Positions 4,903 through 57,363 of a stretch of 64,000 bases of DNA are shown piece after piece. Position numbers and translations under genes: made by a program. This DNA comes from an uncultured Bacteroidales bacterium (GTDB taxonomy: Bacteria; Bacteroidota; Bacteroidia; Bacteroidales; Paludibacteraceae): contig CAMNMN010000011.1 of the NCBI GenBank assembly GCA_946544705.1, positions 2,408 to 66,407 of the forward strand, written 5' to 3'. The notes beneath the pieces are model-generated. The model saw nothing but the letters and a program-made list of their open reading frames with translations. It searched no databases and was not told the DNA's origin. The first letter of the stretch is position 1; each line of letters starts with the position of its first letter.

Positions 4903-6909
4903 ATGAAAAAAATATTAATTAATCATTATTCATTATTCATTCTGCTGGCTGTAGCGCTTTGCGCATGCCAAAAGAAAGAAACAACCTCCTTCCAATACAA
5001 CGTGGATAAGTTTTATGACCTTGAGATACTCCGCTACGACGTGCCGGAGTTCGATTCGCTGAGCCTGCAGCAGAAGCAGCTCGTCTATTGTCTGAGTGAG
5101 GCGGCTCTCTGGGGACGCGACATTCTCTACGACCAGAACGGCCGTTACAACCTGCGTATCCGCCGCACGCTGGAGGACCTCTATAACAACTACCCTTACG
5201 ACAAGAAGGGAGAGGAGTTCGCCGCTTTCGAGCGGTACCTCAAGCGCGTGTGGTTCTCCAACGGTATTCACCATCATTATTCCGAGGATAAGTTCCTGCC
5301 GGAGTTCAGCCGGGAGTGGTTCGTTAACGCTTGCGAGAAAGCGGGTGTGACGTACGACGAAGCGATCCTGCCTGTCATGTTCGATCCGGCGGTCATGCCC
5401 AAACGTACGACCGCACAGGACGGCGTGGATTTAGTGGCTTGCTCTGCCGGCAACTACTACGGCGAGGGGGTGACGCAAGCGGAGGCGGAGGCATGGTACG
5501 CCGCCCACAAGGACAACAGCCCCGAACCGATGTGGATCGGTCTGAACAGCCAGCTGGTGAAGAACGAGAAGGGGGAGATAGAGGAGCGCGTCTATAAGGT
5601 AGGCGGGCTCTACGGCGAAGCGCTGGAGCATGTCGTTTACTGGCTCAAAGAGGCACTCAAATACGCCGAGAACGACGCACAGAAGTTAGCTATCGAGAAG
5701 ATGATCGAGTTCAACGAGACAGGTGACCTGAAGACCTTCAATGAATACTGTATCGCGTGGGTGCGCGACCTCGACAGCCGCGTGGACTACGTCAACGGTT
5801 TTACGGAGACGTACACCGACCCGCTCGGAATCACCGGGACCTGGGAGAGTATGGTGAACTTCAAAGACCTGGCTGCTACCAAACGTACGCAGTTGATCTC
5901 GGAGAATGCGCAGTGGTTTGAGGACCACTCGACGACCGATCCCAAATACAAGAAAGAGGAAGTGAAGGGAGTGACGGCGAAGGTGATCACGGCGGCTATT
6001 CTGGCGGGCGACTGCTATCCCGCTACGCCGATCGGTATCAACCTGCCGAACGCTAACTGGATTCGCAAAGAGTACGGTTCCAAGTCTGTGACGATCGACA
6101 ACCTGATGCATGCGTATAACGAGGCAGCGAAGGGAAACGGATTCAACGAGGAGTTCATGATCGACGACGAGATCCGCGCTATCTACGAGCAATACGGCGC
6201 TATGTGCGGCGACCTGCATACCGACCTGCACGAGTGCGTCGGTCACGGTAGCGGTAAGTTAATGCCGGGTGTGAGCAAAGATGCGCTGAAGGAGCACGCT
6301 TCGACGATCGAGGAAGCGCGTGCCGACCTGTTCGGACTCTATTATCTGGCGGACCCGAAACTGGTGGAGTTAGGCTTGCTGCCGAACGAGGAAGCATTCA
6401 AGGCGGGTTACTACCAGCAGATGATGAACGGCGCAATGACGCAGTTGGTTCGTATCGAGCCGGGTAAGGACATCGAGGAAGCGCATATGCGCAACCGCCA
6501 GCTGATTGCCAATTGGGTCTATGAGCACGCCGCCAACAAAGAGGTGGAGATTGTGGAGCGCGACGGCAAACACTACCTGAGGATCAATGATTACCAGGGT
6601 CTGCGTCGTCTGTATGGCGAGCTGCTGGCAGAGATCCAGCGCATCACTTCCGAAGGCGACTACGCTGCCGCGAAAGAGATAGTGGAGCAATATGCGGTGA
6701 AGGTGAATCCGGAACTGCATCAAGAGATTCTGGAGCGCTACAAGAAACTCAACCTGGCGCCGTACAAAGGTTTTGTCAACCCGGTTTATACCGCGGTGCG
6801 CGATGAGGCAGGTGAGATCACGGATGTGAAGATTGACTTCACCGAAGGTTACATCGAGCAGCACCTGCGTTACAGCCGCGACTACAGTCCGCTGCCGGAC
6901 ATCAATTAA
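4903..6909 (+). CDS. Dipeptidyl-peptidase III-like zinc metallopeptidase (M49 family), lipoprotein
   Basis: HECVGHGSGK (HExxGH) and EEARADL zinc-binding motifs typical of M49. Lipoprotein signal LLAVALCAC. Confidence 0.85.
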   Translation: MKKILINHYSLFILLAVALCACQKKETTSFQYNVDKFYDLEILRYDVPEFDSLSLQQKQLVYCLSEAALWGRDILYDQNGRYNLRIRRTLEDLYNNYPYDKKGEEFAAFERYLKRVWFSNGIHHHYSEDKFLPEFSREWFVNACEKAGVTYDEAILPVMFDPAVMPKRTTAQDGVDLVACSAGNYYGEGVTQAEAEAWYAAHKDNSPEPMWIGLNSQLVKNEKGEIEERVYKVGGLYGEALEHVVYWLKEALKYAENDAQKLAIEKMIEFNETGDLKTFNEYCIAWVRDLDSRVDYVNGFTETYTDPLGITGTWESMVNFKDLAATKRTQLISENAQWFEDHSTTDPKYKKEEVKGVTAKVITAAILAGDCYPATPIGINLPNANWIRKEYGSKSVTIDNLMHAYNEAAKGNGFNEEFMIDDEIRAIYEQYGAMCGDLHTDLHECVGHGSGKLMPGVSKDALKEHASTIEEARADLFGLYYLADPKLVELGLLPNEEAFKAGYYQQMMNGAMTQLVRIEPGKDIEEAHMRNRQLIANWVYEHAANKEVEIVERDGKHYLRINDYQGLRRLYGELLAEIQRITSEGDYAAAKEIVEQYAVKVNPELHQEILERYKKLNLAPYKGFVNPVYTAVRDEAGEITDVKIDFTEGYIEQHLRYSRDYSPLPDIN

Positions 6910-6929
6910 TGAATAATGATTAATGAATA
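6904..6929. repeat. AT-rich word array at a gene boundary
   Basis: attaatgaataatgattaatgaatat (units ATTAATGA/ATAATG), overlapping the stop of the M49 gene. Confidence 0.6.
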
Positions 6930-8786
6930 TTGCAACGCATAACCCTTCCGATATCGAAGAGTATAGCGAATAGAATCCTTCTATTACAGGCTATCCATGG
7001 AGATCCGCTGATGCGGGTCTCTTCGAATATGCCCGATGATGTGATTGTCCTACATGATGCATTGGAGAAGCTTCGAGAGGTTTATGGCGTTCCGGGCTCC
7101 CCTTCTTGCAGGAAGGGGTCGGGGGTAGGTCTCTCCCTATACCTCAAGAACTGTGGTACGGCATTGCGGTTCTTGCAGGTGCATATAGCGAAGTGTTATC
7201 CGGGCGAACCGATTACGTTGACGGGTGATGCGCGGCTGATGGAGCGGGACGGCAAACCGACCTCGCAGACTGTTTCCGCCCGCATCCTGCACGGTGAGGA
7301 TATCCCGGTAGAGGAGAACGAGAGTCCCTATATCACCATGAGCCGCCGAATCAAAGAAAGGTACGAAGGAACGATGTACGATGTACGAAGGATTTACGAA
7401 GGGGGAGAGGTGCAAGGAGTTGAAGCCTGCTGGTCTTCCGCTGCTTTCTGGTACGAGTATGTGGCGATCCACGGGGGAGAGTTGCTGTTGGAGGGACTGA
7501 AAGAGGAGAGTCTGCAGGGCGACAGCATCGTTGCCGACATCTATGCTGGATATTTTGGCGTAAAGACGGAGTTTGAAGAAGAAGGCGCGGTGATAAGTAC
7601 AAGGGACCAAGTGACAAAGTACCAAGTGACAAGGGACAAGGGACGAGCGGTCTCTATTGACTTCACCGGATGTCCGGATCTCTATCCGGCGATAGCGCTG
7701 ACGTGCGAGCGGTTAGGGATCGTATTGGAAGCCACAGGCACCGAGCGTCTGCGGTACAAGGAGTCCGACCGGATAGAGGCGGTTCGGGAGCATGAGGTGC
7801 GGGGTGACCACCGCATGGCGATGGCGCTGATGGCGGCGGACGCCTACCCTCTGCCTGAAGGGGAGGACGAGGAGTTGCAGCGAATCATTGCCAAGAGTTA
7901 TCCTACATTTTTGGAGCAATGGAGGAGGGTACATTGTACTTTGTCCCTTTGTACTTGCTCTCATATCACCCCCCGAAAGGGCATCAACGACGATAACAGG
8001 GGTAAGAAACATGCGTTGAGCAAACTCATCCATGCGGCTACAAGCGAATATGTATGGCTCCATGACGATGACGTTGTGCTGCCAAAGGCAGCAGTTAGGG
8101 GACAAAGTGACCAAGTACAAGGTACAAAGGACGAGGGACAAGGTACAAAGGAGTTGTTCGGCGAAGCCGGTCTTGTAATTTTGCCTCTCAGAATGGAAAG
8201 CGGCAACGCCACGCCTTCATTGTTAGAGAAATTGCAGATAGCGGAGTACGCGGCGATACAGGAGTTGACGATGCGTACGGCGAAGCGGGGTAGAGCCGTG
8301 ATGTGTTCGGGCGCGAATCTGATTGTTCGCAGGGAAGTATGGCTGGCGTGCGAGAGCGAATTACATCCGGAGATACCGAGCGGCGACGACATGTTTCTGT
8401 TGGAGGCGGTGAAGCGCAAAGGCTATCAGATCGCCGTCATTGACGAACCGGAGTACACGGCGGTAGTGCGTCCTGCGCCGACCTGGCGGGCATTCTTCCG
8501 TCAGCGGATGCGATGGGCAGGCAAGGCACCCAAATACACAGACAAAGATATTATCCGTTGCGGTGCGGCAGTAGCGGTAGCGAATATATTGCAGTTGCTC
8601 TGTCCGTTGGTCATCTTAATCAAGTTCCCGATTGAATATAGTTTGATAAAGAAACGCATCTCCCCTTCCTTTAGGAAGGGGTCGGGGGTAGGTCTTTTCT
8701 TTATAGCTCTCCTCTTGGAGATACTCTATCCGTTCTACTTGTTGATTTGTCTTGTTGGCGGTCTATTCCGCAGCAAAGAGTGGTAA
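6930..8786 (+). CDS. Composite ORF: a shortened EPSP-synthase (AroA)-like N-terminal part fused in frame to a GT2-like glycosyltransferase with C-terminal TM helices; contains five in-frame repeat insertions
   Basis: AroA-like motifs SKSIANRILLL, LKNCGTALRFL, GDARLMER, LRYKESDR, GDHRMAMA. These are followed by GT2-like GKKHAL, LHDDDVV, CSGANL, GDDMFL, QRMRWAGK. Only a TTG start is available at 6930. The junction at 7928-7958 is a repeat array. Confidence 0.5.
   Translation: MQRITLPISKSIANRILLLQAIHGDPLMRVSSNMPDDVIVLHDALEKLREVYGVPGSPSCRKGSGVGLSLYLKNCGTALRFLQVHIAKCYPGEPITLTGDARLMERDGKPTSQTVSARILHGEDIPVEENESPYITMSRRIKERYEGTMYDVRRIYEGGEVQGVEACWSSAAFWYEYVAIHGGELLLEGLKEESLQGDSIVADIYAGYFGVKTEFEEEGAVISTRDQVTKYQVTRDKGRAVSIDFTGCPDLYPAIALTCERLGIVLEATGTERLRYKESDRIEAVREHEVRGDHRMAMALMAADAYPLPEGEDEELQRIIAKSYPTFLEQWRRVHCTLSLCTCSHITPRKGINDDNRGKKHALSKLIHAATSEYVWLHDDDVVLPKAAVRGQSDQVQGTKDEGQGTKELFGEAGLVILPLRMESGNATPSLLEKLQIAEYAAIQELTMRTAKRGRAVMCSGANLIVRREVWLACESELHPEIPSGDDMFLLEAVKRKGYQIAVIDEPEYTAVVRPAPTWRAFFRQRMRWAGKAPKYTDKDIIRCGAAVAVANILQLLCPLVILIKFPIEYSLIKKRISPSFRKGSGVGLFFIALLLEILYPFYLLICLVGGLFRSKEW
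7097..7132 (+). repeat. G-rich hairpin element, copy 1 (in frame, encodes SPSCRKGSGVGL)
   Basis: ctCCCCTTCttgcagGAAGGGGtcgggggtaggtct. The 23-nt core aggaaggggtcgggggtaggtct is identical to the copy at 8661-8695. Confidence 0.8.
7595..7647 (+). repeat. GTAC-word array (imperfect tandem 7-8-mers AAGTAC/AAGGGAC/AAGTGAC), in frame
   Basis: aagtacaagggaccaagtgacaaagtaccaagtgacaagggacaagggacgag, encoding QVTKYQVTRDKGR. Confidence 0.8.
7928..7958 (-). repeat. GTAC-word array in inverted orientation at the AroA-like/GT2 junction
   Basis: ggtacattgtactttgtccctttgtacttgc is the reverse complement of gcaagtacaaagggacaaagtacaatgtacc. Encodes CTLSLCTCS. Confidence 0.8.
8098..8153 (+). repeat. GTAC-word array, in frame inside the GT2-like part
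   Basis: ggggacaaagtgaccaagtacaaggtacaaaggacgagggacaaggtacaaaggag, encoding GQSDQVQGTKDEGQGTKE. Confidence 0.8.
8661..8695 (+). repeat. G-rich hairpin element, copy 2 (in frame, encodes SPSFRKGSGVGL)
   Basis: tCCCCTTCCtttaGGAAGGGGtcgggggtaggtct: 8-bp perfect stem with a 4-nt loop. Confidence 0.85.
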
Positions 8787-10852: not shown

Positions 10853-10885
10853 ATTATAACGAATTAACGATTAACGAATGAATGT
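10853..10885. repeat. AT-rich word array spacer
   Basis: attataacgaattaacgattaacgaatgaatgt fills the whole GH32/MFS intergenic gap. Confidence 0.6.
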
Positions 10886-13380: not shown

Positions 13381-15003
13381 TTAATATTGTTTAACTTGGA
13401 TATCTTTGACGGTCATGGCGCCCTCGTAGCAGTTGACAGACCAGCAGTTGCGCTGGATGCCGTAGATGCGCTGGGTATAAGTGAGCACGTCGTTGATATA
13501 CATTACAAGCACGGAGTTGTCGGTATAGATGTTGATATTATACGTTCTGTCCGCAGGAATTGGGAAAGGATAGCTGCCGCCACCTTTGAGTTCCCATTTG
13601 CCCTGCTCCTCTTCGAAACGGATATAGTTATTATTGCCGTCTGGGCAGACCATGATGCTGTAGTATTTCTCGTAGGTCTTGTCGCCGTCTTTGCGGTCGC
13701 CGCGTACGAAAGAGATGCCGAAACGGTCGGTTTTGTCGGCGGTGGTGACGGTCATGGATATATGGTTGTGGTAGCCGAGGGTGTTGAACATGACGGAGCT
13801 ATAAGCCTTCATGGAGTAAACCCCGTCCGCAATGGTGAGATTACCCTCTTCCTCCCCCCATTTCTTCACGGGTTTGAGAGTAGCCGTTAGGTTGTATTTG
13901 GTACGGATAGCAGGCACTTCGGCGGTATAGAGCGTACCGTCCTCGCGCTGCATGAGCCGATGCACAACCATGGTACCTCCCCACTTAGGCTCGGCATCCG
14001 GACTGATATCAGTATTGTCCTTACCGCGACGCTCGGGACACCAACCCCATATATAGCGGTCGGTACCGTCGGAGGCAGTATTGCCGGCATAGAAAGCACG
14101 ACCGTCCAATGCGCCCTCTTTGCTGTCCGGCCAATGGGGAGCAGTAGCGGATTTGAGTTCGCTGATCGTACGCCCTTTGAGATAGTGGACACGGCGCTCG
14201 AAGGCACTCATATCGCTGTAGGTCAGATACCACCAGTCACCCATTTTGAACACATTGGGACACTCCAAGAAACGATCCCACACCATTTTGGAGAAGACAC
14301 CTTTGTGTTCCCAGGTCTGCAGGTCGGTGGAGAAGAACTCTGCGAAGCAACCATCTTTGTCTTCGGCACGCGAACCCGCAGGCATTGGTTTGGTAGCGAC
14401 AATCATATGATAGCCGTCCTCCATTTTCCAAATAAACGGATCGCGGAAATTGAGCGTGCTATAGCCGTAGTCCCCTCCGCGCAGACGGAAGAGCGGATCT
14501 TTGGTCCAAGTCTTGAAATCCGGGCTGGTGGCACGCATGACGACCTGTCTGTCCTCGTCGGCGGCGGGTTTGTACCGCTCACCGGTGTAATAGATATAGT
14601 ACAGTTTCTGCGCTTCGTCATAGACGACACATCCGGTACCGAGCGCCGCGTCCTGTTCGCCTGCGCGTCCGGTCGGCAGCACTTCGCCCATCGGAGTGTA
14701 GGTGGCGCAGTCAGTGGTACGAATACCCCACAAGGGGTGGAAGGTCTCCTCCAGGTTCTGCTCGAAATTATGGAGATAGAGGATCTTGTACTCCTTCTCC
14801 ACCGGGTCGTAGAACGGCAGCGGGTCGCCTACCGATCCGGCAGAAGGGATATAATAGGTGTTAGTGCCCGGCTCATCCGTTGCGTTGAAATAGGCGGTGA
14901 TGTTCTCCCAGTCCTTTTGCTCCTGCGGAATATTCTCCTGACAGGAAGTCAGCAAGGTACAAAGGGACAAAGTACCAAGTACTATTTTATTTAGTGTTTT
15001 CAT
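13381..15003 (-). CDS. GH32-family glycoside hydrolase (divergent; candidate endo-fructanase), lipoprotein
   Basis: FRDPFIW (RDP block) and ECPNVF (EC block). The first block is SVGDPLPFYD rather than WMNDPNG. Lipoprotein signal LGTLSLCTLLTSC. Confidence 0.75.
   Translation of the reverse strand: MKTLNKIVLGTLSLCTLLTSCQENIPQEQKDWENITAYFNATDEPGTNTYYIPSAGSVGDPLPFYDPVEKEYKILYLHNFEQNLEETFHPLWGIRTTDCATYTPMGEVLPTGRAGEQDAALGTGCVVYDEAQKLYYIYYTGERYKPAADEDRQVVMRATSPDFKTWTKDPLFRLRGGDYGYSTLNFRDPFIWKMEDGYHMIVATKPMPAGSRAEDKDGCFAEFFSTDLQTWEHKGVFSKMVWDRFLECPNVFKMGDWWYLTYSDMSAFERRVHYLKGRTISELKSATAPHWPDSKEGALDGRAFYAGNTASDGTDRYIWGWCPERRGKDNTDISPDAEPKWGGTMVVHRLMQREDGTLYTAEVPAIRTKYNLTATLKPVKKWGEEEGNLTIADGVYSMKAYSSVMFNTLGYHNHISMTVTTADKTDRFGISFVRGDRKDGDKTYEKYYSIMVCPDGNNNYIRFEEEQGKWELKGGGSYPFPIPADRTYNINIYTDNSVLVMYINDVLTYTQRIYGIQRNCWSVNCYEGAMTVKDIQVKQY
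14953..14982 (+). repeat. GTAC-word array whose reverse complement encodes the lipoprotein signal peptide of the GH32 gene
   Basis: caaggtacaaagggacaaagtaccaagtac. The minus-strand translation is VLGTLSLCTL. Confidence 0.8.
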
Positions 15004-15009
15004 AAGACA

Positions 15010-16407: not shown

Positions 16408-16463
16408 AATGATTATTTTTTCGATATTTCAATATTCCGAAAAGTCGGGATTTTCAAATACAA

Positions 16464-18212: not shown

Positions 18213-18258
18213 TTTTAGTCTTTTATCTTGATTCTTTTAGCGAAGCGATCATTGCTCC

Positions 18259-21200
18259 TTAGAACGTTACTTTGGTACCTAAGGTTACAGTTAACGGGAT
18301 AGGATATCCGAACGTAGGCACCTCTGGATCGACACCAGTGAACTTAGCCGAGTGAATGGTAAATACGTTCTGCGCCGAAACGAACCAACGCCAGTTTTGC
18401 ATTTTCATCTTGTCGCACGCGTTTTTAGGCAGGTTATAACCCAGCTGCAGGTTACGCAGTTTAAGGAACGAACCGTCCTCTACGAAATAGGTGCTGACAC
18501 GGGTTTCGTTATTATTGTTATTGGTTGACAAAGCAGGTATGTCACTATTGGGATTAGAGGGACTCCATGCGTCTAACACGCGCGTACCTTTATTAAGATT
18601 CGCTACATTCACGCCGGACCAAAGATCCGTCTGCTGCTTGAAGTCCTTCGTGATGACCTGCTGGCCGCCTACGCCTTGGAAGAAGAGCGTCAAGTCGAAA
18701 CCTTTATACTCAAAGTAGAAGTTCGCACCGAATGCGACTGCGGGTATCGGCGAATAGATCCAAGTCTGGTCTGCCTCGCTGACCACACCATCGCCGTTGA
18801 TATCACGATAGCGGATACGGCCCAAGCCTGCACCCTCCTGATAAGCATGGTTATCGATCTCCTCCTGGCTCTTGAAAATACCATCGGCGATGTATCCTAC
18901 CTGCGATCCGATAGCGTGACCAACTACGGACTGTACGCCGTTGCCGCCAAAGGCACCGCTGGCTGCTACTGTTGCAGGCATATCGATTACCTTATTGTTA
19001 TAATGAGAGATGTTGGCGGAGATATCGTATTTGAAGCCTCCTTTGGTTTGGTTGCGGTAACCTAACTGGAACTCAACACCCATATTATCCACCGCGCCGG
19101 CGTTCACCCACTGCGATGCGCCTTCACCCATTACTCCGATACCGGTCATGAGCACGAGGATGTCTTTCGTTTGTTTATAGAACCAGTCGAACGAACCGTA
19201 GAACGTCTGTTTGAAGAAAGAGAAATCGAGACCGACGTTAGTCTGGGTCGTAGTCTCCCATTTGATATCGTCATTACCGATCTGCGTGCGGCGGAAACCC
19301 GAAGGAAGAATACCGCCACCGTTGGTGCCGGCGATGTCGTACGACGTACCGTAACTCTGACCACCGTTCTCGTTCACACCATAGTTGGAGTCGTAGATAG
19401 TATAACGCGCGGTAGCATTGATATCCTGGTTACCCGTCTGACCCCACGAAACACGCAGTTTCAGATCGTCCAACCACGAATTGGCTCCTGCCATGAACTT
19501 CTCCTGGCTGATACGCCAACCGGCGGAAACAGAGGGGAAGAAAGCAAAGCGGTTGTTTTTACCGAAACGACTTGAACCATCATAGCGCATCGTCAGAGAT
19601 ACAAGGTAGCGGTTGTCGTAACTATAGTTCGCCTTTCCAAAGAAAGAGATCAGCGAGAAACTGCCGCCGCCTCCATAAGCCTGGGCTATACCCGTTCCTG
19701 CTGACGGCCACATATAGGTAGGATTGAGCACGATGAAGTCCTCTTTATAAGCAGAGAACCACTCATCTATCTGTCTGTTAAGCTCCGTTCCCAACAAGAA
19801 GTCTGCACGGTGCTTGCCAATCTCCAGATTATAGGTAATAATGGCGTTCCACATCCATTTTGTCCAATGCTCTTGTTTTGCTTCTACGGCATTCTTATCA
19901 TTAGCCACCACACCTTCGGTGATGGGATACGTGAAGAAACGCTGCTTCTTCTGCGCATAGTCGAGACCTGCCGTAGTACGAATATTCAAGCCCTTAATCG
20001 GGTTGATATTGATGAACACGTTTCCGAACAAACGCCAATAGGTGTATCGGTTGTCTTTGTTGCGCTCCAGAATGGAGAGAGGATTCTCACGTTGCGGGAA
20101 GCCGCTGGACGAAGGAGCCTGCGCCAGATCGCCGTTGGTCGTATAGACCGGCAGCAAGGGGTTGTATTGGAGCACGCTCTCAATGTAACCGCCGGGAGCG
20201 CCTACCTCAGAAGTGCGGTTAAGCGTGAAGTTCTCACCGATAGTCACAATATCGTTCAGCATCTTATAGTCGCTGTTAACACGTGCCGAAAAACGGTCGA
20301 AGTTAGTCGTCTTGATAATACCGTCGTTTTTGTAGTAGCCCAGAGAGAAGAACGCACTACCCTTCTTACCACCGTTGCTGACAGAGATATTGTAGTTCTG
20401 TATCACGCCGGGACGGGTGGTCTGAGCAAACCAGTCAGTATTGCTTACCGGTACTGTTCCGGCAGCATCGAGGTACTTGTTGAGCATGATGTTATTCAAA
20501 ACCGGCTGGCCTTGCTCGTTATAACCCCAGTCGTAATGATACCCCAATACGTTGGTGTTCGGATCAGCCGTACCATCGTTGACATATGCCTGCCACATAG
20601 CTCGACCGAACTGCTCGGAATTGAGGACGTGCATACGGTTTACGTAGTTCTGCACAGCTACGGATGCATCCAAAGAGACACTTAACTTACCCTCCGAGCC
20701 TTTCTTGGTGGTGATGATGATAACACCGTTAGCAGCGCGCGAACCATATATACTCGCGGACGCGGCGTCTTTGAGCACCTGGATGGACTCAATATCATTC
20801 GGGTTGAGCTCATGCATGCCCGAGGTCGTAGGTACACCATCTATGACGTAAAGAGGATCGTTGGAGGAATTCAAAGAACCTGTGCCTCGGATACGTACCG
20901 TTGCTGTTCCTGAAGGGTTACCATCCGCAGAGATATTCATGCCCGGTACTTTTCCCTGAAGGGCCTTCATCGGGTTATTCTCCTGCTGTTTCTCCAGATC
21001 TTTCGCCGAGATAGCAGAAACAGCACCGGTCAGGTCGGCTTTACGCTGCGTCGTATAACCGGTTACTACCACTTCCTCCAGCACCTCGCTGTCCTCCGCA
21101 AGGGAGACTTTCATGTTCGCTTTCGGGAATAACTGCTGGGTCTTATAACCCACATACGAAATCACTACCATGGCATCTTTGCCTACAGGAAGTGAGAAAT

Positions 21201-21378
21201 TACCATCGAAATCGGTAATCGTACCATTCGATGTACCTTCCTCCAGTACAGACGCTCCAATGATCGGCTCACCCGTAGCAGCATCCACCACGACACCCGT
21301 AGCGGTCACCTGCGCGTACGAAGCCATCGTGCAGCATACCATCAGGAGAAAGGCTAAGAACACACTTTTTTGTTTCAT
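18259..21378 (-). CDS. SusC-family TonB-dependent outer-membrane transporter
   Basis: Carboxypeptidase-regulatory-like N-domain (GVVVDAATGEPIIGASVLEEGTSNGTITDFDGNFSL), plug, and a C-terminal barrel ending in F. I start at MKQKSVFLAFLLMV (ATG 21378), not 21480. Confidence 0.92.
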   Translation of the reverse strand: MKQKSVFLAFLLMVCCTMASYAQVTATGVVVDAATGEPIIGASVLEEGTSNGTITDFDGNFSLPVGKDAMVVISYVGYKTQQLFPKANMKVSLAEDSEVLEEVVVTGYTTQRKADLTGAVSAISAKDLEKQQENNPMKALQGKVPGMNISADGNPSGTATVRIRGTGSLNSSNDPLYVIDGVPTTSGMHELNPNDIESIQVLKDAASASIYGSRAANGVIIITTKKGSEGKLSVSLDASVAVQNYVNRMHVLNSEQFGRAMWQAYVNDGTADPNTNVLGYHYDWGYNEQGQPVLNNIMLNKYLDAAGTVPVSNTDWFAQTTRPGVIQNYNISVSNGGKKGSAFFSLGYYKNDGIIKTTNFDRFSARVNSDYKMLNDIVTIGENFTLNRTSEVGAPGGYIESVLQYNPLLPVYTTNGDLAQAPSSSGFPQRENPLSILERNKDNRYTYWRLFGNVFININPIKGLNIRTTAGLDYAQKKQRFFTYPITEGVVANDKNAVEAKQEHWTKWMWNAIITYNLEIGKHRADFLLGTELNRQIDEWFSAYKEDFIVLNPTYMWPSAGTGIAQAYGGGGSFSLISFFGKANYSYDNRYLVSLTMRYDGSSRFGKNNRFAFFPSVSAGWRISQEKFMAGANSWLDDLKLRVSWGQTGNQDINATARYTIYDSNYGVNENGGQSYGTSYDIAGTNGGGILPSGFRRTQIGNDDIKWETTTQTNVGLDFSFFKQTFYGSFDWFYKQTKDILVLMTGIGVMGEGASQWVNAGAVDNMGVEFQLGYRNQTKGGFKYDISANISHYNNKVIDMPATVAASGAFGGNGVQSVVGHAIGSQVGYIADGIFKSQEEIDNHAYQEGAGLGRIRYRDINGDGVVSEADQTWIYSPIPAVAFGANFYFEYKGFDLTLFFQGVGGQQVITKDFKQQTDLWSGVNVANLNKGTRVLDAWSPSNPNSDIPALSTNNNNNETRVSTYFVEDGSFLKLRNLQLGYNLPKNACDKMKMQNWRWFVSAQNVFTIHSAKFTGVDPEVPTFGYPIPLTVTLGTKVTF

Positions 21379-21441
21379 GATATTGTTAATTTTGATTGTA
21401 AAAAAGCAATGTAGCGAAATCCGATTGCTCAAATTCCGCTG

Positions 21442-21449
21442 CAAAGATA
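21442..21449 (-). promoter_or_regulatory. -7 promoter box TATCTTTG for the susC operon
   Basis: Plus-strand caaagata, about 63 nt upstream of the susC ATG. Confidence 0.55.
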
Positions 21450-21480
21450 CGCGCATTTTGACACACACGCAAAAAATCAT

Positions 21481-23731: not shown

Positions 23732-23764
23732 TTCAATTAAAAATTTAAAATTAAAAATTACGAA
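23732..23764. repeat. AT-rich heptamer-word spacer (rnfE/rnfA)
   Basis: ttcaattaaaaatttaaaattaaaaattacgaa fills the whole intergenic gap. It shares attaaaaattacgaatta with the spacers at 25986 and 27366. Confidence 0.75.
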
Positions 23765-25985: not shown

Positions 25986-26021
25986 AATTAAAAATTAAAA
26001 ATTACGAATTAAAAATTTAAA
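25986..26021. repeat. AT-rich heptamer-word spacer (rnfC/rnfD)
   Basis: aattaaaaattaaaaattacgaattaaaaatttaaa. Confidence 0.75.
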
Positions 26022-27365: not shown

Positions 27366-27406
27366 TCTAAATTAAAAATTAAAAATTAAGAATTACGAAT
27401 TGTGAA
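27366..27406. repeat. AT-rich heptamer-word spacer (rnfB/rnfC)
   Basis: tctaaattaaaaattaaaaattaagaattacgaattgtgaa. Confidence 0.75.
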
Positions 27407-28295: not shown

Positions 28296-28410
28296 GCAAT
28301 TATTTTTTATTTACGCAAGCGCACGCGAACTTTATTTTCTAAAAAGCGTTTTTTTTGACGAAAAATCAAGTACTTTGTACTTTTTGCTTTTTTATATCAA
28401 TTATTTTTTG

Positions 28411-28418
28411 TACTTTTG
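28411..28418 (+). promoter_or_regulatory. -7 promoter box TACTTTTG for ftsK
   Basis: 19 nt upstream of the ATG at 28438. Confidence 0.55.
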
Positions 28419-28437
28419 CGCACTAAATTGAGTTACT

Positions 28438-31035
28438 ATGCCCCGAACTACATCCAAACTAAGCAATATGCAGGCAGATGCCCCCCGTCGCGCCATCAAG
28501 GTGGAGAAGCCGAGCGTGTGGGAATCGGTGCGTTTGTTTCTGAACGCCCGGGAGACCCGTATGGTGTGCGGGATCGTGCTGCTGACCTTTTCCGTGATCG
28601 CCCTGCTGGCGTATGTGAGTTATCTTTTCACCGGTCCGTCCGATCAGTCGATACTGTCCCTTTCCCGTCCGGAGCGCATCGCTAACCGCGAGGCGATACG
28701 GAATCTGTTAGGTTTGCCGGGCGCCGTGCTGGCGCGGTTTATGATCGACGGCAGTTTCGGATTTATGTCCGTGCTGCTGGCGTTGATGATCGGTGCATAC
28801 GCTTTGCGTATCATGCATGTTTTCCGGGATATACCGGCGCTGAAGATATTCCTCTGCGGTACCTTTGTGGTGCTATGGGGTTCTGTGACGCTGGGTTTTG
28901 CGCACAACATGGTGCACCAGACGGGTGTGTTCCTCTGGGGCGGCGCTTTCGGCGAAGCTTCGGCACGATGGATGGTCAGTTATCTGAACGAATTGGGGAC
29001 GGGCATTATTCTGGTAGTGGCGCTGACGATATTTCTGGTAGTGAGCGATGAGAGGTTTATCGACCGATGCAAGTCTTTCGGGATCTGGTTCGCGGGTTTA
29101 TTCAAGAAGAAGGCGCCGAAAGAGCCGGACGAGGATACGGAGGTGACGATCGATCTGCCGATAGACGGCGGAGAGCCTACCCCAGGAAGTTCTCTGAAAG
29201 GAGGGGAGATGAGCAGTGAGGGTGACGAAGTGACCTTCACGATAGAGCCGATAGGGGGCGAAGGCGACGAGCCGGAGATAGCGATCGAGGAGCCTACCGA
29301 GCCGGAGGCGCCGGAGTTGCCGGACGACGGAGGTCCTGCGGACGGTACGCTGACGGATCTGCTGAAGGAAGAAAGCAAGAGACCCGAAGAGGAAAAGCCC
29401 AAGGATCCGGATCTGGAGATAGAGGATGTGGCGGAGGATGAGTTATACACCAAGGACCCGGACAAGCTATTAGAGAAACTCGGTCCGTACGACCCGCGCA
29501 AAGATCTGGAGTTCTACAAGTTCCCGAGTCTGGGGTTGCTGAAAGTATATGACAACGAGGCCGCTCCGGTGATCGACGAAGAGGAGCAGCGGGCGAACGG
29601 CGCACGTATCGTGACGACGCTTCGCAACTATGGCATAGAAATTGATAGCATCAAAGCGACGGTCGGACCGACCGTGACGCTCTATGAGATAGTGCCGAAA
29701 GCCGGTATCCGCGTAGCGAAGATCCAGGCGCTGGAGAACGATATCATGATGAGTCTGAGCGCTACCGGTATCCGTATTATTGCTCCGATGCCGGGAAAGG
29801 GAACAATCGGTATCGAGGTGCCGAACGAGAAGCCGCAGGTGGTAAGCATGCACTCGGTGATCGCTTCCAAGAGGTTTCAGGAAGAGACGAAGATGAAGCT
29901 GCCGATCGCCTACGGACGGACGATCACGAACGAGGTGTTCATGTTCGACTTAGCGAAGACGCCGCACTTGCTGGTAGCCGGTGCGACAGGAACAGGTAAG
30001 TCCGTAGCCATCAACGCGATCATCACTTCGCTGCTGTACAAGAAACATCCGGCGGAGCTGAAGCTGGTGATGGTCGATCCGAAGATGGTAGAGTTCGCTC
30101 CGTACAAGCCGCTGCTGAAACATTTCTTAGCGGCGATGCCGGACACCGATCCGGAGCAGATCGTCATCACCGACTGCGACAAGGTGGTGAACACATTGAA
30201 TTCGCTGGTGATCGAGATGGAGAACCGGTACAAACTGCTGATGGATGCGGGCGTGCGCAATCTGGAGGACTACAACGACAAGTTCGTCCGCAGACGGCTG
30301 AATCCCAACAAGTTGGTGGGCGACAGTCTGCATCACCAATACCTGCCCTATATCGTCATCATCATCGACGAGTACGGCGATTTCATCATGCAGGCGGGCA
30401 AGCAGGTGGAGACGCCTATCGCCCGTATCACGCAGAAAGCGCGCGCCGTAGGAATGCACATGATCCTGGCAACCCAGCGTCCGAGTGTCAATATTGTGAC
30501 GGGTGTGATCAAGGCGAATATCCCTACGCGTATTGCGCTTCGCACGCAGAGTGTGATTGACAGCCGTACGGTGCTGGATGCGAAGGGAGCGGAGCAGTTG
30601 ATCGGCCGCGGCGACAGCCTCTATGCCGGCAACGCCAGCATCACCCGTGTACAGTGCGCGTTCGTCGATACACCGGAGGTGGACGAGATAGTGAAGCATA
30701 TCTCCAAACAGCAACGCTATACCGAACCGTATCAGTTGCCGGAGTATGTAGGCGAAGGCGGCGAAGGGGAAGCTTTGGCTCCTGGCAGCGTGGATATGAA
30801 ACGGCTCGATCCGATGTTCGCGGACGTAGCGAGGTACGTGGTGACCAAACAGGAAGGTTCGACGAGCCGTCTGCAGCGTGCGTTCGAGATCGGTTATAAC
30901 CGCGCCGGCAAACTGTCCGACCAACTGGAGGCTGCCGGCATCGTGGGCCCGAACAAAGGTCCGAAGGGAAGGGACGTGCTGATACAAGATTTGGACCAAC
31001 TGGAGAAACTGCTGGAGGAACTGGGAGTCAGGTAA
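28438..31035 (+). CDS. ftsK: DNA translocase FtsK/SpoIIIE
   Basis: N-terminal TM helices, an acidic/Pro-rich linker, Walker A GATGTGKS, Walker B IIIDEYGD, and a gamma winged-helix domain (STSRLQRAFEIGYNRAGKLSDQLE). Confidence 0.95.
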   Translation: MPRTTSKLSNMQADAPRRAIKVEKPSVWESVRLFLNARETRMVCGIVLLTFSVIALLAYVSYLFTGPSDQSILSLSRPERIANREAIRNLLGLPGAVLARFMIDGSFGFMSVLLALMIGAYALRIMHVFRDIPALKIFLCGTFVVLWGSVTLGFAHNMVHQTGVFLWGGAFGEASARWMVSYLNELGTGIILVVALTIFLVVSDERFIDRCKSFGIWFAGLFKKKAPKEPDEDTEVTIDLPIDGGEPTPGSSLKGGEMSSEGDEVTFTIEPIGGEGDEPEIAIEEPTEPEAPELPDDGGPADGTLTDLLKEESKRPEEEKPKDPDLEIEDVAEDELYTKDPDKLLEKLGPYDPRKDLEFYKFPSLGLLKVYDNEAAPVIDEEEQRANGARIVTTLRNYGIEIDSIKATVGPTVTLYEIVPKAGIRVAKIQALENDIMMSLSATGIRIIAPMPGKGTIGIEVPNEKPQVVSMHSVIASKRFQEETKMKLPIAYGRTITNEVFMFDLAKTPHLLVAGATGTGKSVAINAIITSLLYKKHPAELKLVMVDPKMVEFAPYKPLLKHFLAAMPDTDPEQIVITDCDKVVNTLNSLVIEMENRYKLLMDAGVRNLEDYNDKFVRRRLNPNKLVGDSLHHQYLPYIVIIIDEYGDFIMQAGKQVETPIARITQKARAVGMHMILATQRPSVNIVTGVIKANIPTRIALRTQSVIDSRTVLDAKGAEQLIGRGDSLYAGNASITRVQCAFVDTPEVDEIVKHISKQQRYTEPYQLPEYVGEGGEGEALAPGSVDMKRLDPMFADVARYVVTKQEGSTSRLQRAFEIGYNRAGKLSDQLEAAGIVGPNKGPKGRDVLIQDLDQLEKLLEELGVR

Positions 31036-31089
31036 GGTACTAAGGGACTAAGTACCAAGTACAAAGTACAAGGGACGAGGTACAAAGAC
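31033..31089 (+). repeat. GTAC-word array filling the ftsK/lolA-like spacer
   Basis: taaggtactaagggactaagtaccaagtacaaagtacaagggacgaggtacaaagac, starting at the ftsK stop codon. Confidence 0.85.
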
Positions 31090-31094
31090 TAAAT

Positions 31095-31682
31095 ATGAAA
31101 GGGTTATTAATTATATTATCGGTTTTGACGAGTTTCTTAACGAATCTCGAGCAGAAGACTTTGAAGTCGCAGTTTACCGTCACGGTGAGTGAAGAGGTGA
31201 ATGCACCGATGAATTTTCCCGGCGAGATCATCATGCAGGGGAGTAAGTTCCGTCTGGAGATGTTCGACCTCGAGGCGGCGTACGACGGCAAGACGATGTA
31301 TATGTACTCCGCCCAGACCGATGAGTTGACGCTCTCGAACCCTACGGAGCAGGAGTTGGTGGAAGCGAATCCGCTGCTGTACGCCAAGGCGCTGGTAGGA
31401 GTTTGTAACATAACGGAGCGGGCGACGCAGGACGGTTCGCAGACGATAGTGACGCTGACGCCGAAGGACCAGAGTATCGGTATCAACCGCTTTGTGCTGA
31501 AGGTGCGAAACAGCGACCTGATGCCGCTGTCGGTGGAGATCAAAGAGGGCAAAAAGACTTCGACACTGAAGATGAAAGAGCCGAAATTTATACAAAGTGA
31601 CAAAGTACAAAGTACGAAGGATGATTCAATTTTCAGCCTTCAAGCCGATAAGAATACATACATTAACGATATGAGATTTTAG
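31095..31682 (+). CDS. lolA: LolA-like outer-membrane lipoprotein carrier protein
   Basis: Signal peptide, about 195 aa, sits immediately after ftsK (conserved ftsK-lolA synteny). Typical block GSKFRLEMFDLEAAYDGKTMYMYS. Confidence 0.65.
   Translation: MKGLLIILSVLTSFLTNLEQKTLKSQFTVTVSEEVNAPMNFPGEIIMQGSKFRLEMFDLEAAYDGKTMYMYSAQTDELTLSNPTEQELVEANPLLYAKALVGVCNITERATQDGSQTIVTLTPKDQSIGINRFVLKVRNSDLMPLSVEIKEGKKTSTLKMKEPKFIQSDKVQSTKDDSIFSLQADKNTYINDMRF
31592..31620 (+). repeat. GTAC-word array in frame near the C-terminus of the LolA-like protein
   Basis: acaaagtgacaaagtacaaagtacgaagg, encoding SDKVQSTKD. Confidence 0.75.
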
Positions 31683-31686
31683 CAAT

Positions 31687-32652
31687 ATGAATAGAGTAAA
31701 ATGTTTGATAATAGGTTCCGGTCCTGCGGGATACACGGCTGCTATCTATGCGAGCCGTGCTAATCTGGAGCCGGTGCTGATAGAAGGTCCGCAGCTTGGC
31801 GGGCAGTTGACGACCACGACGGAGGTGGAGAATTTTCCGGGTTATCCGGACGGCGTAGAGCCGTTCACGATGATGGACGACATGCGCCGTCAGGCAGAAC
31901 GCTTCGGCACAAAATTCGTGTCGGGTATTGTGACCAAGGTAGATTTCTCTGTCAGTCCGAAGAAAGTATGGGTGGAAGATACGGAGGAATATGAAGCGGA
32001 TGCAGTGATCATTGCTACGGGCGCGAGTGCCAAATACCTCGGCATTGAGAGCGAGCGGACGTACAAAGGCCGCGGCGTGAGTGCTTGCGCCACCTGCGAC
32101 GGTTTCTTCTATCGCAAGAAAACGGTAGCGGTAGTAGGCGGCGGAGACACCGCCTGCGAAGAGGCCAATTATCTGGCGGGGCTCTGCGAGAAGGTCTATA
32201 TGATTGTTCGCAAACCCTATCTTCGTGCTTCGGAGATCATGCAGCAACGCGTGCTGAACAACCCGAAGATAGAGGTGCTTTTTGAGCATAATACGCTGCA
32301 GTTGACGGGTGAAGGCAAGGTACAGGGAGCAGACCTGGTGTACCGCAAAGGCGAGCCGGACGAAGCGATGCGGCATATAGCCATCGACGGTTTCTTCCTG
32401 GCTATCGGTCATCATCCGAACACAGAGTTATTCAAGGACTATGTAGCCCGCGACGCTGAGGGGTACATCATCGTAGATGGAGCCTCTACGCAATGTTTCT
32501 CCCTTCCCTTTAGGGAGGGGCAAGGGGTAGGCCTTCCCGGTGTCTTTGCCGCCGGAGACTGCGCCGATCCGCATTATCGCCAGGCTATCGTCGCTGCCGG
32601 AAGCGGTGCCAAAGCGGCTATCGAAGCAGACAAATATATCAAGAGTTTGTAA
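31687..32652 (+). CDS. trxB: Thioredoxin-disulfide reductase
   Basis: GSGPAGYTAAIYASRA (FAD), redox-active CATCDG, GGGDTACEEA (NADPH), GVFAAGD. Confidence 0.95.
   Translation: MNRVKCLIIGSGPAGYTAAIYASRANLEPVLIEGPQLGGQLTTTTEVENFPGYPDGVEPFTMMDDMRRQAERFGTKFVSGIVTKVDFSVSPKKVWVEDTEEYEADAVIIATGASAKYLGIESERTYKGRGVSACATCDGFFYRKKTVAVVGGGDTACEEANYLAGLCEKVYMIVRKPYLRASEIMQQRVLNNPKIEVLFEHNTLQLTGEGKVQGADLVYRKGEPDEAMRHIAIDGFFLAIGHHPNTELFKDYVARDAEGYIIVDGASTQCFSLPFREGQGVGLPGVFAAGDCADPHYRQAIVAAGSGAKAAIEADKYIKSL
32498..32534 (+). repeat. G-rich hairpin element, copy 3, inserted in frame in trxB
   Basis: tctCCCTTCCCtttaGGGAGGGGcaaggggtaggcct. About 28 of 35 positions match the 8661 copy by hand alignment, with stem-preserving changes. 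Encodes SLPFREGQGVGL just before GVFAAGD. Confidence 0.8.
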
Positions 32653-33033: not shown

Positions 33034-33074
33034 GCGTTAAATTGTTAAATTGTTAAACCGTTAAACTATTATCA
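33034..33074. repeat. Octamer-word array spacer
   Basis: gcGTTAAATTGTTAAATTGTTAAACCGTTAAACtattatca between rsfS and ftsH. Confidence 0.7.
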
Positions 33075-48059: not shown

Positions 48060-48132
48060 TGGTGCCAACGGGAATCGAACCAGTGACACAAGGATTTTCA
48101 GTCCTTTGCTCTACCAACTGAGCTATGGCACC
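48060..48132 (-). tRNA. tRNA-Phe (anticodon GAA)
   Basis: Reverse complement GGTGCCATAGCTCAGTTGGTAGAGCAAAGGACTGAAAATCCTTGTGTCACTGGTTCGATTCCCGTTGGCACCA. It has a 7-bp acceptor stem, a canonical D-arm and anticodon loop CTGAAAA. CCA is not encoded. Confidence 0.95.
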
Positions 48133-49072: not shown

Positions 49073-49158
49073 CCCCGATATAACCCCTATAAAGTGGCAG
49101 AAAAATGCCTTGTTATAAAATTTTTATAGAAAAATTTGTTCATATCAAAAAAATGTAG

Positions 49159-49166
49159 TACCTTTG
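49159..49166 (+). promoter_or_regulatory. -7 promoter box TACCTTTG for the amylase cluster
   Basis: 25 nt upstream of the ATG at 49192. The context gtagtaCCTTTGCAcg resembles that at 61099. Confidence 0.6.
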
Positions 49167-49191
49167 CACGAATTTTTAGCAAAGTTAAACC

Positions 49192-55341: not shown

Positions 55342-57363
55342 ATGAAAAAGATTTATATACTGATAGCAGTCCTCGTTTATGCGGCGGGGGTGTTGGCTGC
55401 TAACTGGAATGATGTGGCAGGTGTTGAGCCGGTAGAGCGTACCCGTCCTGCAGGTGTGACGAATGGTATTTACTATGGTGCGGATGGCACTTCCGTGACC
55501 CTATGTACCTATGCCGCCAGCAAAACGCAATCCGCCAAGCGCGTGTTCCTGTTGGGCGATATGACCAACTGGAAACTCAGCGCGGACTATCAGTTGTTCA
55601 AAGACGGTAATTATTTCTGGATTACGTTAACCGGTTTAACTCCCGGACAGGAGTATCGTTTCCAGTACGCGGTAGAGCGTGCGGATGGTTTGAAAAAACA
55701 GATCTCGGATCTGTATTCGGAGAAAGTGCTGCACCCGGACGATCAGTATGAACCGAAGAAAGTGGATCCCAATTTATTGGATTATCCTGCAGGCAAAGGC
55801 GCAGACGGCTATGTGACGGTTATCCAGCCGGGCAAGCCGAAGTACCAATGGTCGGATGCTACGCTCCATTTTCAGCGTCCGAACAAGAACAACCTCGTTA
55901 TCTACGAGTTGTGGATCTATGATTATACCGAAGGACGCTCGTTGAAGGGATTGATGAAGCGTCTGGATTATATCCAAAACTTGGGTGTGAATGCGGTGGA
56001 GTTGATGCCGATTTGCGAGTTTGACGGAAACTATAACTGGGGTTATTCGCCGAACCATTATTTTGCGCCGGATAAAGCGTACGGCACGGAGGAGATGTAC
56101 AAGACGTTCATCGATGAGTGTCATAAACGCGGCATGGCGGTGATCCTTGATATGGTTTTCAACCATGCTACGGGACTCAATCCGATGAACAAACTCTATC
56201 CGTATGGTTCGGATTTGGCGAATAACCCGTGGTTTAACGTCAACGCGCCGCATAGCGATAATGTCTATGAGGACTGGAATCACGGTTTCGAGCCGGCGCA
56301 TGAGATGTTTATCCGGGCGTTGAAGTATTGGTTAACGGAGTACAAGGTGGATGGTTTCCGTTTGGATCTCAGTCATGGTCTTTGTTCGGACAAACCGAAT
56401 ACCTCGGTGGGCAACCTCAAGGACTATTACGACAAAGGCGTCAAGGCCGTTTCTCCCGATGCGTATATGATCTGTGAGCACTGGGGCAGTAATATGGGGA
56501 CGGAGCGTCCTCAGTTGGTCAGCTACGGTATGCAGTGCTGGTCGAATACGTCTAATGCGTATTGCCAGACAGCGATGGGATGGCTCAAGGATGGTGACGG
56601 TTTTGGAGAAGCCAATAAAGACGGCTATGTATCTTATTGCGAGAGCCACGATGAAGAGCGAATGCAGTACAAAGTGAAGCAGTACGGAAACGGAGACCTG
56701 AAGACCAATACCGCTGCTCGTCTGGCGCGTGTGCCGGAGAACGTAGCGTTCAATGTGCTGCTGAACGGATCGCATATGCTTTGGATGTGGGAGGAGGTCG
56801 GTTATGACTTCTCAATCAACTGTGATATCGACCATCCCAATGCGTACAACGAGAGCTATCGATGCAGCAAGAAACCCCGTCCGGAGATTCGCTCCTATTT
56901 CACCAATAAGGACCGTGTGGCGGCGTTTACCAAGTGCGCGCAAGTGATAACCCTGCGTACGCAGTTGATGCCGGGGGTCTTCGAGGGTAACCCGACGAGT
57001 CAAAATATCAGTTCCGGGGACAAACTGCGTAAGATCCAATGGGGCAGCAATGTGTTTGCTGCGGCGAATTTCGATGTGACGAGCAATCAAGCCGTCACGC
57101 TGCCTTCCGGTACATGGTACGACTATCTGAACGGCGCTACGCGCGCTAACGGCACTTATACCCTTGCTCCGGGTGAGTTGAAGGTCTTTACCGGTACGCC
57201 GGTTATTGCGCCGACATTTGAGGATATCAACAAACGTGAAACGCAGGGTTTTGAAGAAGTACAAATGGATCAAGTACCAAGTACCAAGTTCTTCCACGAC
57301 GGGCAGATTCTCATTCGCCGCGGAGACAATATCTATACGATTACGGGCGAGCGCGTAAAATAA
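55342..57363 (+). CDS. Secreted GH13 enzyme (pullulanase/neopullulanase-like, with an N-terminal Ig-like/CBM48-like domain) carrying the shared C-terminal tail
   Basis: DMVFNHAT, VDGFRLDLSHG, MICEHWG, YCESHDEE. Ends KFFHDGQILIRRGDNIYTITGERVK. Confidence 0.88.
   Translation: MKKIYILIAVLVYAAGVLAANWNDVAGVEPVERTRPAGVTNGIYYGADGTSVTLCTYAASKTQSAKRVFLLGDMTNWKLSADYQLFKDGNYFWITLTGLTPGQEYRFQYAVERADGLKKQISDLYSEKVLHPDDQYEPKKVDPNLLDYPAGKGADGYVTVIQPGKPKYQWSDATLHFQRPNKNNLVIYELWIYDYTEGRSLKGLMKRLDYIQNLGVNAVELMPICEFDGNYNWGYSPNHYFAPDKAYGTEEMYKTFIDECHKRGMAVILDMVFNHATGLNPMNKLYPYGSDLANNPWFNVNAPHSDNVYEDWNHGFEPAHEMFIRALKYWLTEYKVDGFRLDLSHGLCSDKPNTSVGNLKDYYDKGVKAVSPDAYMICEHWGSNMGTERPQLVSYGMQCWSNTSNAYCQTAMGWLKDGDGFGEANKDGYVSYCESHDEERMQYKVKQYGNGDLKTNTAARLARVPENVAFNVLLNGSHMLWMWEEVGYDFSINCDIDHPNAYNESYRCSKKPRPEIRSYFTNKDRVAAFTKCAQVITLRTQLMPGVFEGNPTSQNISSGDKLRKIQWGSNVFAAANFDVTSNQAVTLPSGTWYDYLNGATRANGTYTLAPGELKVFTGTPVIAPTFEDINKRETQGFEEVQMDQVPSTKFFHDGQILIRRGDNIYTITGERVK
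57271..57290 (+). repeat. Short GTAC-word array in frame just before the C-terminal tail
   Basis: caagtaccaagtaccaagtt, encoding QVPSTKF. Confidence 0.6.

Follow-up and report, generated by a model that had tools for sequence, protein, structure and literature searches.

Tandem arrays of degenerate GTAC-word heptamers between and within genes of an uncultured rumen Paludibacteraceae bacterium

We examined a stretch of 64,000 nucleotides (hereafter, the window) from an uncultured Bacteroidales bacterium of the family Paludibacteraceae (GenBank assembly GCA_946544705.1, contig CAMNMN010000011.1, positions 2,408 to 66,407 of the forward strand), in which short words containing GTAC are concatenated into tandem arrays. 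The focal array, designated D, lies between the genes for FtsK (28438-31035) and a LolA-like protein (31095-31682), both assignments being backed by Pfam. An initial annotation, made from the letters alone, had described the ftsK/lolA-like spacer as consisting wholly of such words, and this is what we found: array D occupies 31033..31094 on the plus strand (words at 31034-31083), its first TAA is the stop codon of ftsK, and it reads TAAGGTAC TAAGGGAC TAAGTACC AAGTACA AAGTAC AAGGGAC GAGGTAC AAAGACTAAAT. It contains TAA in all three frames at 8-nt spacing, and the distance from the array end to the lolA ATG is 11 nt.

A unit scan and Tandem Repeats Finder (TRF) recovered all eight GTAC-word sites of the initial annotation in the window at or near the positions given there, TRF reporting periods of 7 and 8, with the multiples 14, 21 and 22, at all main sites. 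The arrays occur in both orientations, as had been noted, with array G on the opposite strand and array C antisense to a GH32 gene. The words themselves lie at 7936-7956 in array G, at 8097-8146 in array B, from 57272 to 57284 or 57290 in array F, and at 28370-28382 in trace H. The GTAC words of the original description are real. A degenerate heptamer, AAGKKAC or AAGTACM, into which an 8-mer is mixed now and then, fits their units best; other unit families had been missed. Chance or compositional clustering would suffice for the single units, which are unremarkable (AAGTAC and related hexamers number 178 in 64 kb against about 175 under an order-5 Markov model), and for a trace at 28367-28382 that comprises just two units. 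It does not suffice for clusters of three or more units, of which six were observed, whereas 0, 0 and 0.005 were expected under window models of order 1, 3 and 5, respectively (200 simulations per order). The array D region is 100% identical to the window in five independent assemblies, with identity spanning 27-35 kb, and the arrays are therefore not assembly noise; they are also shorter than one sequencing read, and a GTAC-word allele at a second junction, described below, is present in two separate samples. Chance or artefact is thus scarcely credible as an explanation, and the arrays are confirmed to be real and far beyond chance.

Repeat density was high throughout the clade. At a TRF score of at least 40, the window contained 25 arrays per 100 kb and 413 kb from 67 related species contained 53 per 100 kb, with period 7 dominant, compared with 0-2.7 per 100 kb in shuffled sequence. 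A 50-kb Escherichia coli control gave 8 arrays per 100 kb, equal to its own shuffle, with periods of 12 and 15 only. Across bacteria, AAGTACM arrays returned at least 120 matches in many phyla against about 4 expected, and a control heptamer matched in composition, stop-free and with a palindromic core (AATGCAM) likewise returned at least 120. We therefore dropped the idea that the GTAC word is special among bacteria, the control being equally widespread across phyla: the heptamer-repeat phenomenon is general, not a property of the GTAC word, and heptamer richness is clade-wide. Mixtures of AAGGTAC, AAGTAC, AAGTGAC and AAGGGAC like those of the window were also seen between genes in unrelated gut or rumen hosts (L081, L132, L332 and L333, from Akkermansia sp., Bacteroidota, Prevotella sp. 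and Prevotellaceae UBA2738).

Relatives of the LolA-like protein came only from rumen or gut metagenome-assembled genomes (MAGs) labelled 'Paludibacteraceae' or uncultured Bacteroidales, with a top identity of 85%, and the identical protein is encoded on contigs including those of MAG GCA_002395805.1. The orthologous ftsK|lolA junction measures 0-22 nt in 14 of the 55 species compared, ten of these having no gap at all; in the gapless junctions that were read, the ftsK stop codon overlaps the lolA ATG. In the remaining 41 species, the spacer is 25-200 nt long and mostly a visible array of a 7-11-mer unit that differs by lineage (for example, CTAGTAGAC, CATCTAA, AATCTAAA, ATATCGAA, ACGTAAACGAG, AACGACGGTC and GTCGAGGTCAA). 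The sense strand of these spacers holds 40% A and 17% T, compared with 26% and 23% locus-wide. Even among strains that encode an identical LolA, the focal spacer occurs as alleles of 59 nt or 97 nt, the longer being equal to the shorter plus one AAAGTAC (7 nt) and a 31-nt block of units.

The sequences flanking this junction also vary. Between the lolA stop and the trxB ATG (31683-31686 in the window), L068, L071 and L075 carry a 69-nt TCGTAAA/ATCGTACAT array, including a small CCGCGAAGCGG hairpin, in place of the CAAT of the window. Their final two lolA codons and stop differ at 5 of 9 nt with Arg-Phe-stop retained, which suggests import of this allele through recombination. The low-complexity linker of FtsK (29130-29212) shows several indels of 8-14 nt between the window and L068 and L071, and in RUG455, a related species, the FtsK linker contains a GTAC-word array translated as PSDKVQGTK.

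The array-generating process is active, as strains with about 99% identical flanks differ by whole units or blocks. Length polymorphism was found at the focal spacer (7 and 31 nt), within array B (21 nt) and in the spacer that separates an M49 peptidase gene from the downstream gene for an EPSP-synthase-like/family-2 glycosyltransferase (GT2) fusion. In the window, the latter spacer is a TAATGAA array of three units (6907..6931, plus strand), which runs from the peptidase stop codon across the whole gap; in other strains it has four or five units, or a GTAC-word cassette stands there instead. Spacers differ in length by 7, 14, 31 or 69 nt. Slipped-strand mispairing or unequal exchange would be expected to leave just such gains and losses of whole units or blocks between strains.

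The GTAC-word allele of the M49 junction was found in L198 and L326, two independent samples, where the spacer reads TAAGGTACTAAGGGACTAAGTACCAAGTACAAAGTACAAGGGACGAGG... and not TAATGAA. Its sequence is exactly identical over 48 nt to the first 48 nt of array D in the window, at an unlinked locus, and the shared sequence starts at the TAA stop of the upstream gene at both junctions. The same array also supplies ATG TAC AAG GTA, that is, the N-terminus MYKV. Six units in the same order, joined by identical linkers, cannot credibly have arisen twice independently, and we infer that array sequence was copied between unlinked loci. A diagnostic 21-mer common to L001 and L039 encodes PSDKVQGTK in both species, one having it within lolA and the other within the linker of ftsK; it occurs five times in 185,579 species genomes, once per genome. 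Unit families are shared 2.7 times more within a locus than between loci, and a metagenome scan for the cassette core GGTACTAAGGGACTAAGTACC gave no matches.

These observations could also be read as the traces of a small non-autonomous mobile or templated cassette, inserted by a dedicated enzyme (transposase, recombinase, reverse transcriptase or primase-polymerase) and altered by slippage only later. The 48-nt identity starting exactly at a TAA stop at two unlinked junctions would fit such an element, as would the unit order common to arrays C, D and G, the presence of arrays in both orientations, the wholesale swapping of spacer alleles between strains, and the occurrence in the same genome of a second short element, a palindromic 36-mer that is likewise in frame and strain-polymorphic. 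However, array ends and lengths differ at every site, with lengths ranging from 13 to 97 nt, and orthologous spacers have unrelated units from species to species. Upon reading the array junctions, we noticed no hairpin, terminal inverted repeats, target-site duplications or constant ends, although no dedicated search for them was made. High copy number showed no sign in the five genomes with the diagnostic 21-mer, each of which has it once. The leader of lolA, which bears the array, has no significant RNA structure (minimum free energy −7.7, z = −0.9 against dinucleotide shuffles). No candidate enzyme was seen beside the arrays, many open reading frames (ORFs) of the window being unannotated; the sole mobile-element-like gene noticed encodes a DUF3987 (primase/helicase-associated) protein at 61138-62388. 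We consider an enzyme-inserted element of this kind rather improbable. The initial annotation had named slippage, a small mobile element and templated insertion as possible sources: the strain differences bear out its view that the process is active and the 48-nt identity supports templating or copying, whereas the mobile element is unsupported and the process is not specific to GTAC words. The related proposal that arrays moved as ready-made cassettes among unlinked junctions and coding loops by a specific templated or recombinational mechanism, which draws on the 48 nt shared by two stop-codon junctions, on alleles replaced wholesale and on the co-occurring in-frame palindrome, also seems unlikely to us.

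Five of the eight GTAC-word sites are coding, and all five are frame-preserving and lie within hypervariable segments. The array near the C-terminus of the LolA-like protein, array E (31595..31615, plus strand), is translated as SDKVQSTKD, as first described. In an alignment of about 60 orthologs, it corresponds to an 18-nt in-frame insertion that adds the six residues SDKVQS; about 59 orthologs lack this insertion, the closest species (L001) alone having one, as SDKVQG, and other lineages have different insertions in the same loop.

Three further arrays (A, G and B) lie, as claimed, in a 618-aa ORF originally called AroA/GT2, in which an EPSP-synthase-like domain is fused to a GT2 domain. This fusion is conserved in the whole clade, and both domains are present in all matches listed (at least 120, 520-671 aa). 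The alignment of this protein shows long invariant runs broken by a few hypervariable columns, and it is these columns that are occupied by the three arrays and by a TACGAAG array of a sister family. We compared the gene with that of two strains, L197 and L198, with flanks about 99% identical. Array A (7595..7644, plus strand), in a hypervariable loop and translated as STRDQVTKYQVTRDKGR, is 9 nt shorter in L198 and in L197 is swapped for an unrelated repeat within a diverged tract. Array G (7929..7956, minus strand) is antisense to the gene, is translated as VHCTLSLCT at the domain junction, and is 92% reverse-complementary to array C over 26 nt. Array B (8097..8152, plus strand), in the GT2 part, is translated as RGQSDQVQGTKDEGQGTKE with a higher-order period of 21 nt; the peptide spanning the array in this part of the protein is GQSDQVQGTKDEGQGTK. 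It is shorter by exactly 21 nt in L197, between direct repeats ACAAGGTACAAAGGA, and distant orthologs have QSDKVPSTKD at this position. The sister TACGAAG/ATGTACG array (7358..7405, plus strand) is also in frame, translated as ERYEGTMYDVRRIYEGG, and is 42 nt shorter in L197, P0004, P0005 and P0008.

The same gene holds two in-frame copies (SPSxRKGSGVGL) of a 36-nt palindromic element, CTCCCCTTCYTKYAGGAAGGGGTCGGGGGTAGGTCT, at 7097-7132 and 8660-8695, and a diverged copy lies in trxB at 32499-32534; the stem is 7-9 bp (CCCCTTC...GAAGGGG). The copy at 8660 is missing in L197 and L198, and the trxB copy is missing in L068 and L071, where TrxB has 310 aa compared with 321 aa. Upstream, the start of the M49 peptidase gene (4911-4935), where the signal-peptide core ILINHYSLFIL is encoded, matches the reverse complement of the TAATGAA array at 6907-6931 at 96% over 25 nt, so that inverted copies of one array stand at both ends of the gene.

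Array C (14954..14982, plus strand) lies, as the initial annotation had placed it, in the signal-peptide region of the GH32 gene (13381-15003, minus strand). The N-terminus of the GH32 protein, MKTLNKIVLGTLSLCTLLTSC, is a lipoprotein signal peptide, and its hydrophobic core, IVLGTLSLCTLL, is encoded by the reverse complement of the array words. GH32 orthologs of about 80% identity or more keep the VLCTLSLCT core, and unrelated cores are present in others. The gene belongs to a fructan-type polysaccharide utilisation cluster (13381-21480) with GH32, DUF4960 and large ORFs read as putative SusD-like and SusC-like genes. Array F (57268..57290, plus strand), assigned earlier to a pullulanase-like gene just before its tail, consists of 2.7 copies of CAAGTAC translated as DQVPSTK in the variable linker that leads to the C-terminal tail of a GH13 protein. 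In place of this peptide, the alternative linker EQPTSDSSLKGRGEK is found in some orthologs of about 96% identity. Four consecutive GH13 (alpha-amylase family) genes occupy 49192-57363, three of which are paralogues 60-80% similar (direct repeats D1, D2, D4 and D8).

At all of these sites, the ORFs continue through the arrays into conserved downstream sequence. In the sense direction, the words are predicted to be translated as hydrophilic linkers of K, Q, S, T, D and G; the T-rich antisense strand could encode stretches of L, C, T and V able to serve as a signal-peptide core. A unit length that is not a multiple of 3, polymorphic unit number, and sites that include a signal peptide, a surface-glycan-related glycosyltransferase and the vicinity of a promoter might recall contingency loci, in which gain or loss of a 7-8-nt unit shifts the reading frame or promoter spacing and produces phase variation. 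Nevertheless, the coding length differences that were resolved (18, 21, 9 and 42 nt) are all multiples of 3, no out-of-frame allele was found among the retrieved coding alleles, all of which keep the frame, and essential genes are involved (lolA, trxB context). The imperfection of the arrays also lowers slippage rates. Phase variation is thus a very unlikely role for these repeats.

The remaining site, trace H (28367..28382, minus strand), consists of two antisense units, GTACTTTGTACTTT. They belong to the promoter region from which rseC and ftsK diverge, and the ftsK −7 box, GTACTTTTGC, follows some 30 nt downstream. The two units reported there exist, but the trace is weak and is probably explained by promoter sequence rather than by an array: its resemblance to the arrays would follow from a local −7 consensus, GTAnnTTTGC, that contains GTAC. 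A recurrent promoter-like block, AAAAAAGTTGTACCTTTGCACG, which holds the Bacteroidota −7 box TAnnTTTG, was seen at 4856-4891, 49143-49178, 63138-63173 and 28405-28420. A promoter link of the arrays in general was considered and rejected; antisense words resemble the −7 box, yet no match to TAnnTTTG was found in the arrays examined.

Further unit families in the window (TAATGAA, TTTAATT/TTCGTAA, GTTAAAT and TACGAAG) act in the same way as the GTAC words. Three spacers of the rnf operon (23732-23764, 25986-26021 and 27366-27406, minus strand) have TTTAATT and TTCGTAA as their sense-strand units, the rsfS|ftsH spacer (33034..33074, plus strand) is built of GTTAAATT units, and another short intra-operon gap holds an array of TTCGTTAA (10853-10885). 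The sister arrays end 0-8 nt ahead of their start codons, and by our own count roughly half of the short co-directional (intra-operon) gaps in the window are arrays of 7-8-mers. Arrays are found only at permissive places, namely, co-directional gene gaps, promoter regions, hypervariable loops, linkers, N-termini and signal peptides.

We consider it likely that the GTAC-word arrays form one family among the degenerate simple sequence repeats (SSRs), with heptamer and octamer units, of a repeat-rich rumen Paludibacteraceae lineage, with an origin by slippage, spread between loci and a selective filter. Under this explanation, arrays would arise by replication slippage on short seeds and would be spread or homogenised between loci through ectopic recombination or template switching. 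Inside genes, only stop-free and frame-preserving arrays would survive selection. Bacteroidota do not rely on Shine-Dalgarno pairing, and we propose that selection would tolerate arrays in spacers, or favour them slightly, for the A-rich leader that they place immediately before a start codon; the focal array would in addition provide stop codons in every frame. The overall role may therefore be neutral to mildly useful, the arrays serving as start-codon leaders, three-frame stop pads, flexible linkers in the sense direction and hydrophobic cores in the antisense direction.

Several points count against this explanation. Slippage alone leaves unexplained why the same 48-nt higher-order sequence stands at two loci, for which copying has to be invoked. 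The idea of A-rich leaders is weak, and the sense strand of the rnf spacers is T-rich instead of A-rich. When the region from −50 to +20 of all 46 genes was folded and compared with dinucleotide shuffles, array leaders were weakly structured in absolute terms, yet not less so than the shuffles (z = −1.7 to +1.2). Translation of the coding arrays is deduced from ORF continuity and ortholog conservation, and the data comprise the 64-kb window and strain fragments, not a whole genome.

The position of the spacer arrays might instead suggest cis-regulatory sites, in which a reiterated motif would be recognised by a protein that binds RNA or DNA and adjusts how strongly the next gene is transcribed or translated. 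The focal and sister arrays are in sense orientation and end a few bases upstream of starts, the sense strand of the spacers is A-rich, variation in unit number among strains could tune expression, and TAACTGA repeats have been reported with the same location pattern (PMC4679880). On the other hand, the same words occur within coding regions in both orientations, wholly different arrays coexist as alleles in one species, and other species have unrelated units in the orthologous spacer or no spacer at all, their genes overlapping. An Rfam scan of the 64 kb matched no array; only a tRNA (48060-48132, minus strand) reached the gathering score. A regulatory function of this kind is quite improbable in our judgement.

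Repeats of this class are known from other bacteria. According to two papers, both citing Mrazek 2007, long prokaryotic SSRs have 5-11-nt units among which heptamers dominate and are the most over-represented, and a source in polymerase slippage has been put forward for them; the GGGAATC arrays of Xanthomonas and the GGGGAYT arrays of Nostoc are examples (PMC4679880, PMC4692102). One of these describes heptamer repeats as almost unstudied (PMC4692102). Similar to the GTAC-word arrays, long SSRs are head-to-tail with a period of about 7, are strongly over-represented with slippage as the proposed origin, lie mostly between genes including intra-operon gaps (one Nostoc array stands between pecE and pecF), and vary in length and sequence among close relatives. 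The arrays of the window differ from them in unit sequence, in being short (2-8 units) and markedly degenerate with 7-mers and 8-mers mixed, in being translated in frame in conserved proteins at many sites, in having one higher-order sequence at two loci, and in their host, an uncultured rumen Bacteroidota lineage. Long SSRs whose unit length is not divisible by 3 are largely kept out of coding DNA, a rule that the frame-preserving coding sites of the window would follow in a relaxed form.

Long SSRs are sometimes paired with an inverted array, and the window has an example at 62386-62447, where a TTGACMAAG 9-mer array and, 15 nt further on, the same array inverted form a hairpin directly after the stop of the DUF3987 gene. 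Arrays paired in a similar way were seen in other phyla (L117, L108 and L083). The DUF3987 gene itself lies beside an AraC-type regulator and may mark an integrated element.

TAACTGA repeats, which in Beggiatoaceae were proposed to be recognised by a regulatory protein that binds RNA or DNA and acts on the downstream gene, also occur in a few Bacteroidetes, including Paludibacter (PMC4679880). They share with the GTAC-word arrays the reuse of one heptamer family at many loci of a genome, a majority of forward-oriented copies that stop a few nucleotides short of a start codon, and a few copies inside genes. In contrast, TAACTGA sets are near-perfect and almost never coding, whereas the window has a different unit, several coexisting families and common coding insertions. 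Short tandemly repeated repetitive (STRR) heptamers of cyanobacteria, such as CCCCAGT, were reportedly described by Mazel et al. in 1990. They are mentioned for Calothrix (PMC4692102). Here too, a few heptamer families are dispersed through the genome as tandem arrays, but STRR arrays are longer, more perfect and not reported to be translated, and their units and taxon differ. The units of TAACTGA and STRR repeats (TAACTGA; CCCCAGT, TTGGTCA and CAACAGT) are not matched by AAGKKAC or AAGTACM. What the GTAC-word arrays have in common with all of these heptamer families, those of Xanthomonas and Nostoc included, is a place between genes that is often immediately ahead of a start, a unit family scattered over the genome, and differences among closely related bacteria.

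Two other kinds of element offer partial parallels. Mycobacterial interspersed repetitive units (MIRU) are said to have been described by Supply et al. in 1997. They are intercistronic, with units of 46-101 bp and an internal ORF (PMC12548453). Both MIRU and the GTAC-word arrays are dispersed between operon genes at stop/start junctions, with strain-variable copy number and little downstream effect. The small ORF of MIRU, however, overlaps the flanking stop and start and couples translation, whereas GTAC-word units are 7-8 nt long without an internal ORF, and the focal array has stops in all frames and no internal start codon. Rickettsia palindromic elements (RPE), reportedly of about 100-150 bp and found in frame in conserved protein genes (Ogata et al., 2000), are likewise short repeated DNA tolerated as extra surface peptide. 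RPE are palindromic and not tandem heptamers, and their closer analogue in the window is the 36-nt palindrome at 7097, 8660 and 32499. We conclude that the GTAC-word arrays belong to the known class of heptamer SSRs and are not a new kind of system; what sets them apart from the known families is the unit sequence, the strong degeneracy, the frequent in-frame coding use and the documented 48-nt copy at a second locus.

The lineage offers an unusually clear natural experiment, in which the same two genes, ftsK and lolA, overlap in some species and are separated by differently repeat-filled spacers in dozens of others. Repeats there become protein, as linkers, as a start codon with the first residues, and as signal-peptide cores. 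This bears on the evolution of operon spacing, on the origin of new peptide segments from non-coding repeats, and on the annotation of MAGs, for at such arrays gene callers misplace start codons and fuse or truncate ORFs. If arrays did move as cassettes, intergenic spacers, protein linkers, N-termini and signal-peptide cores would be made de novo as a matter of routine, and a dedicated copying mechanism would be a new kind of genome-shaping process. The value of these arrays lies in clean comparative evidence of repeat turnover, copying between loci and the conversion of repeats to protein.

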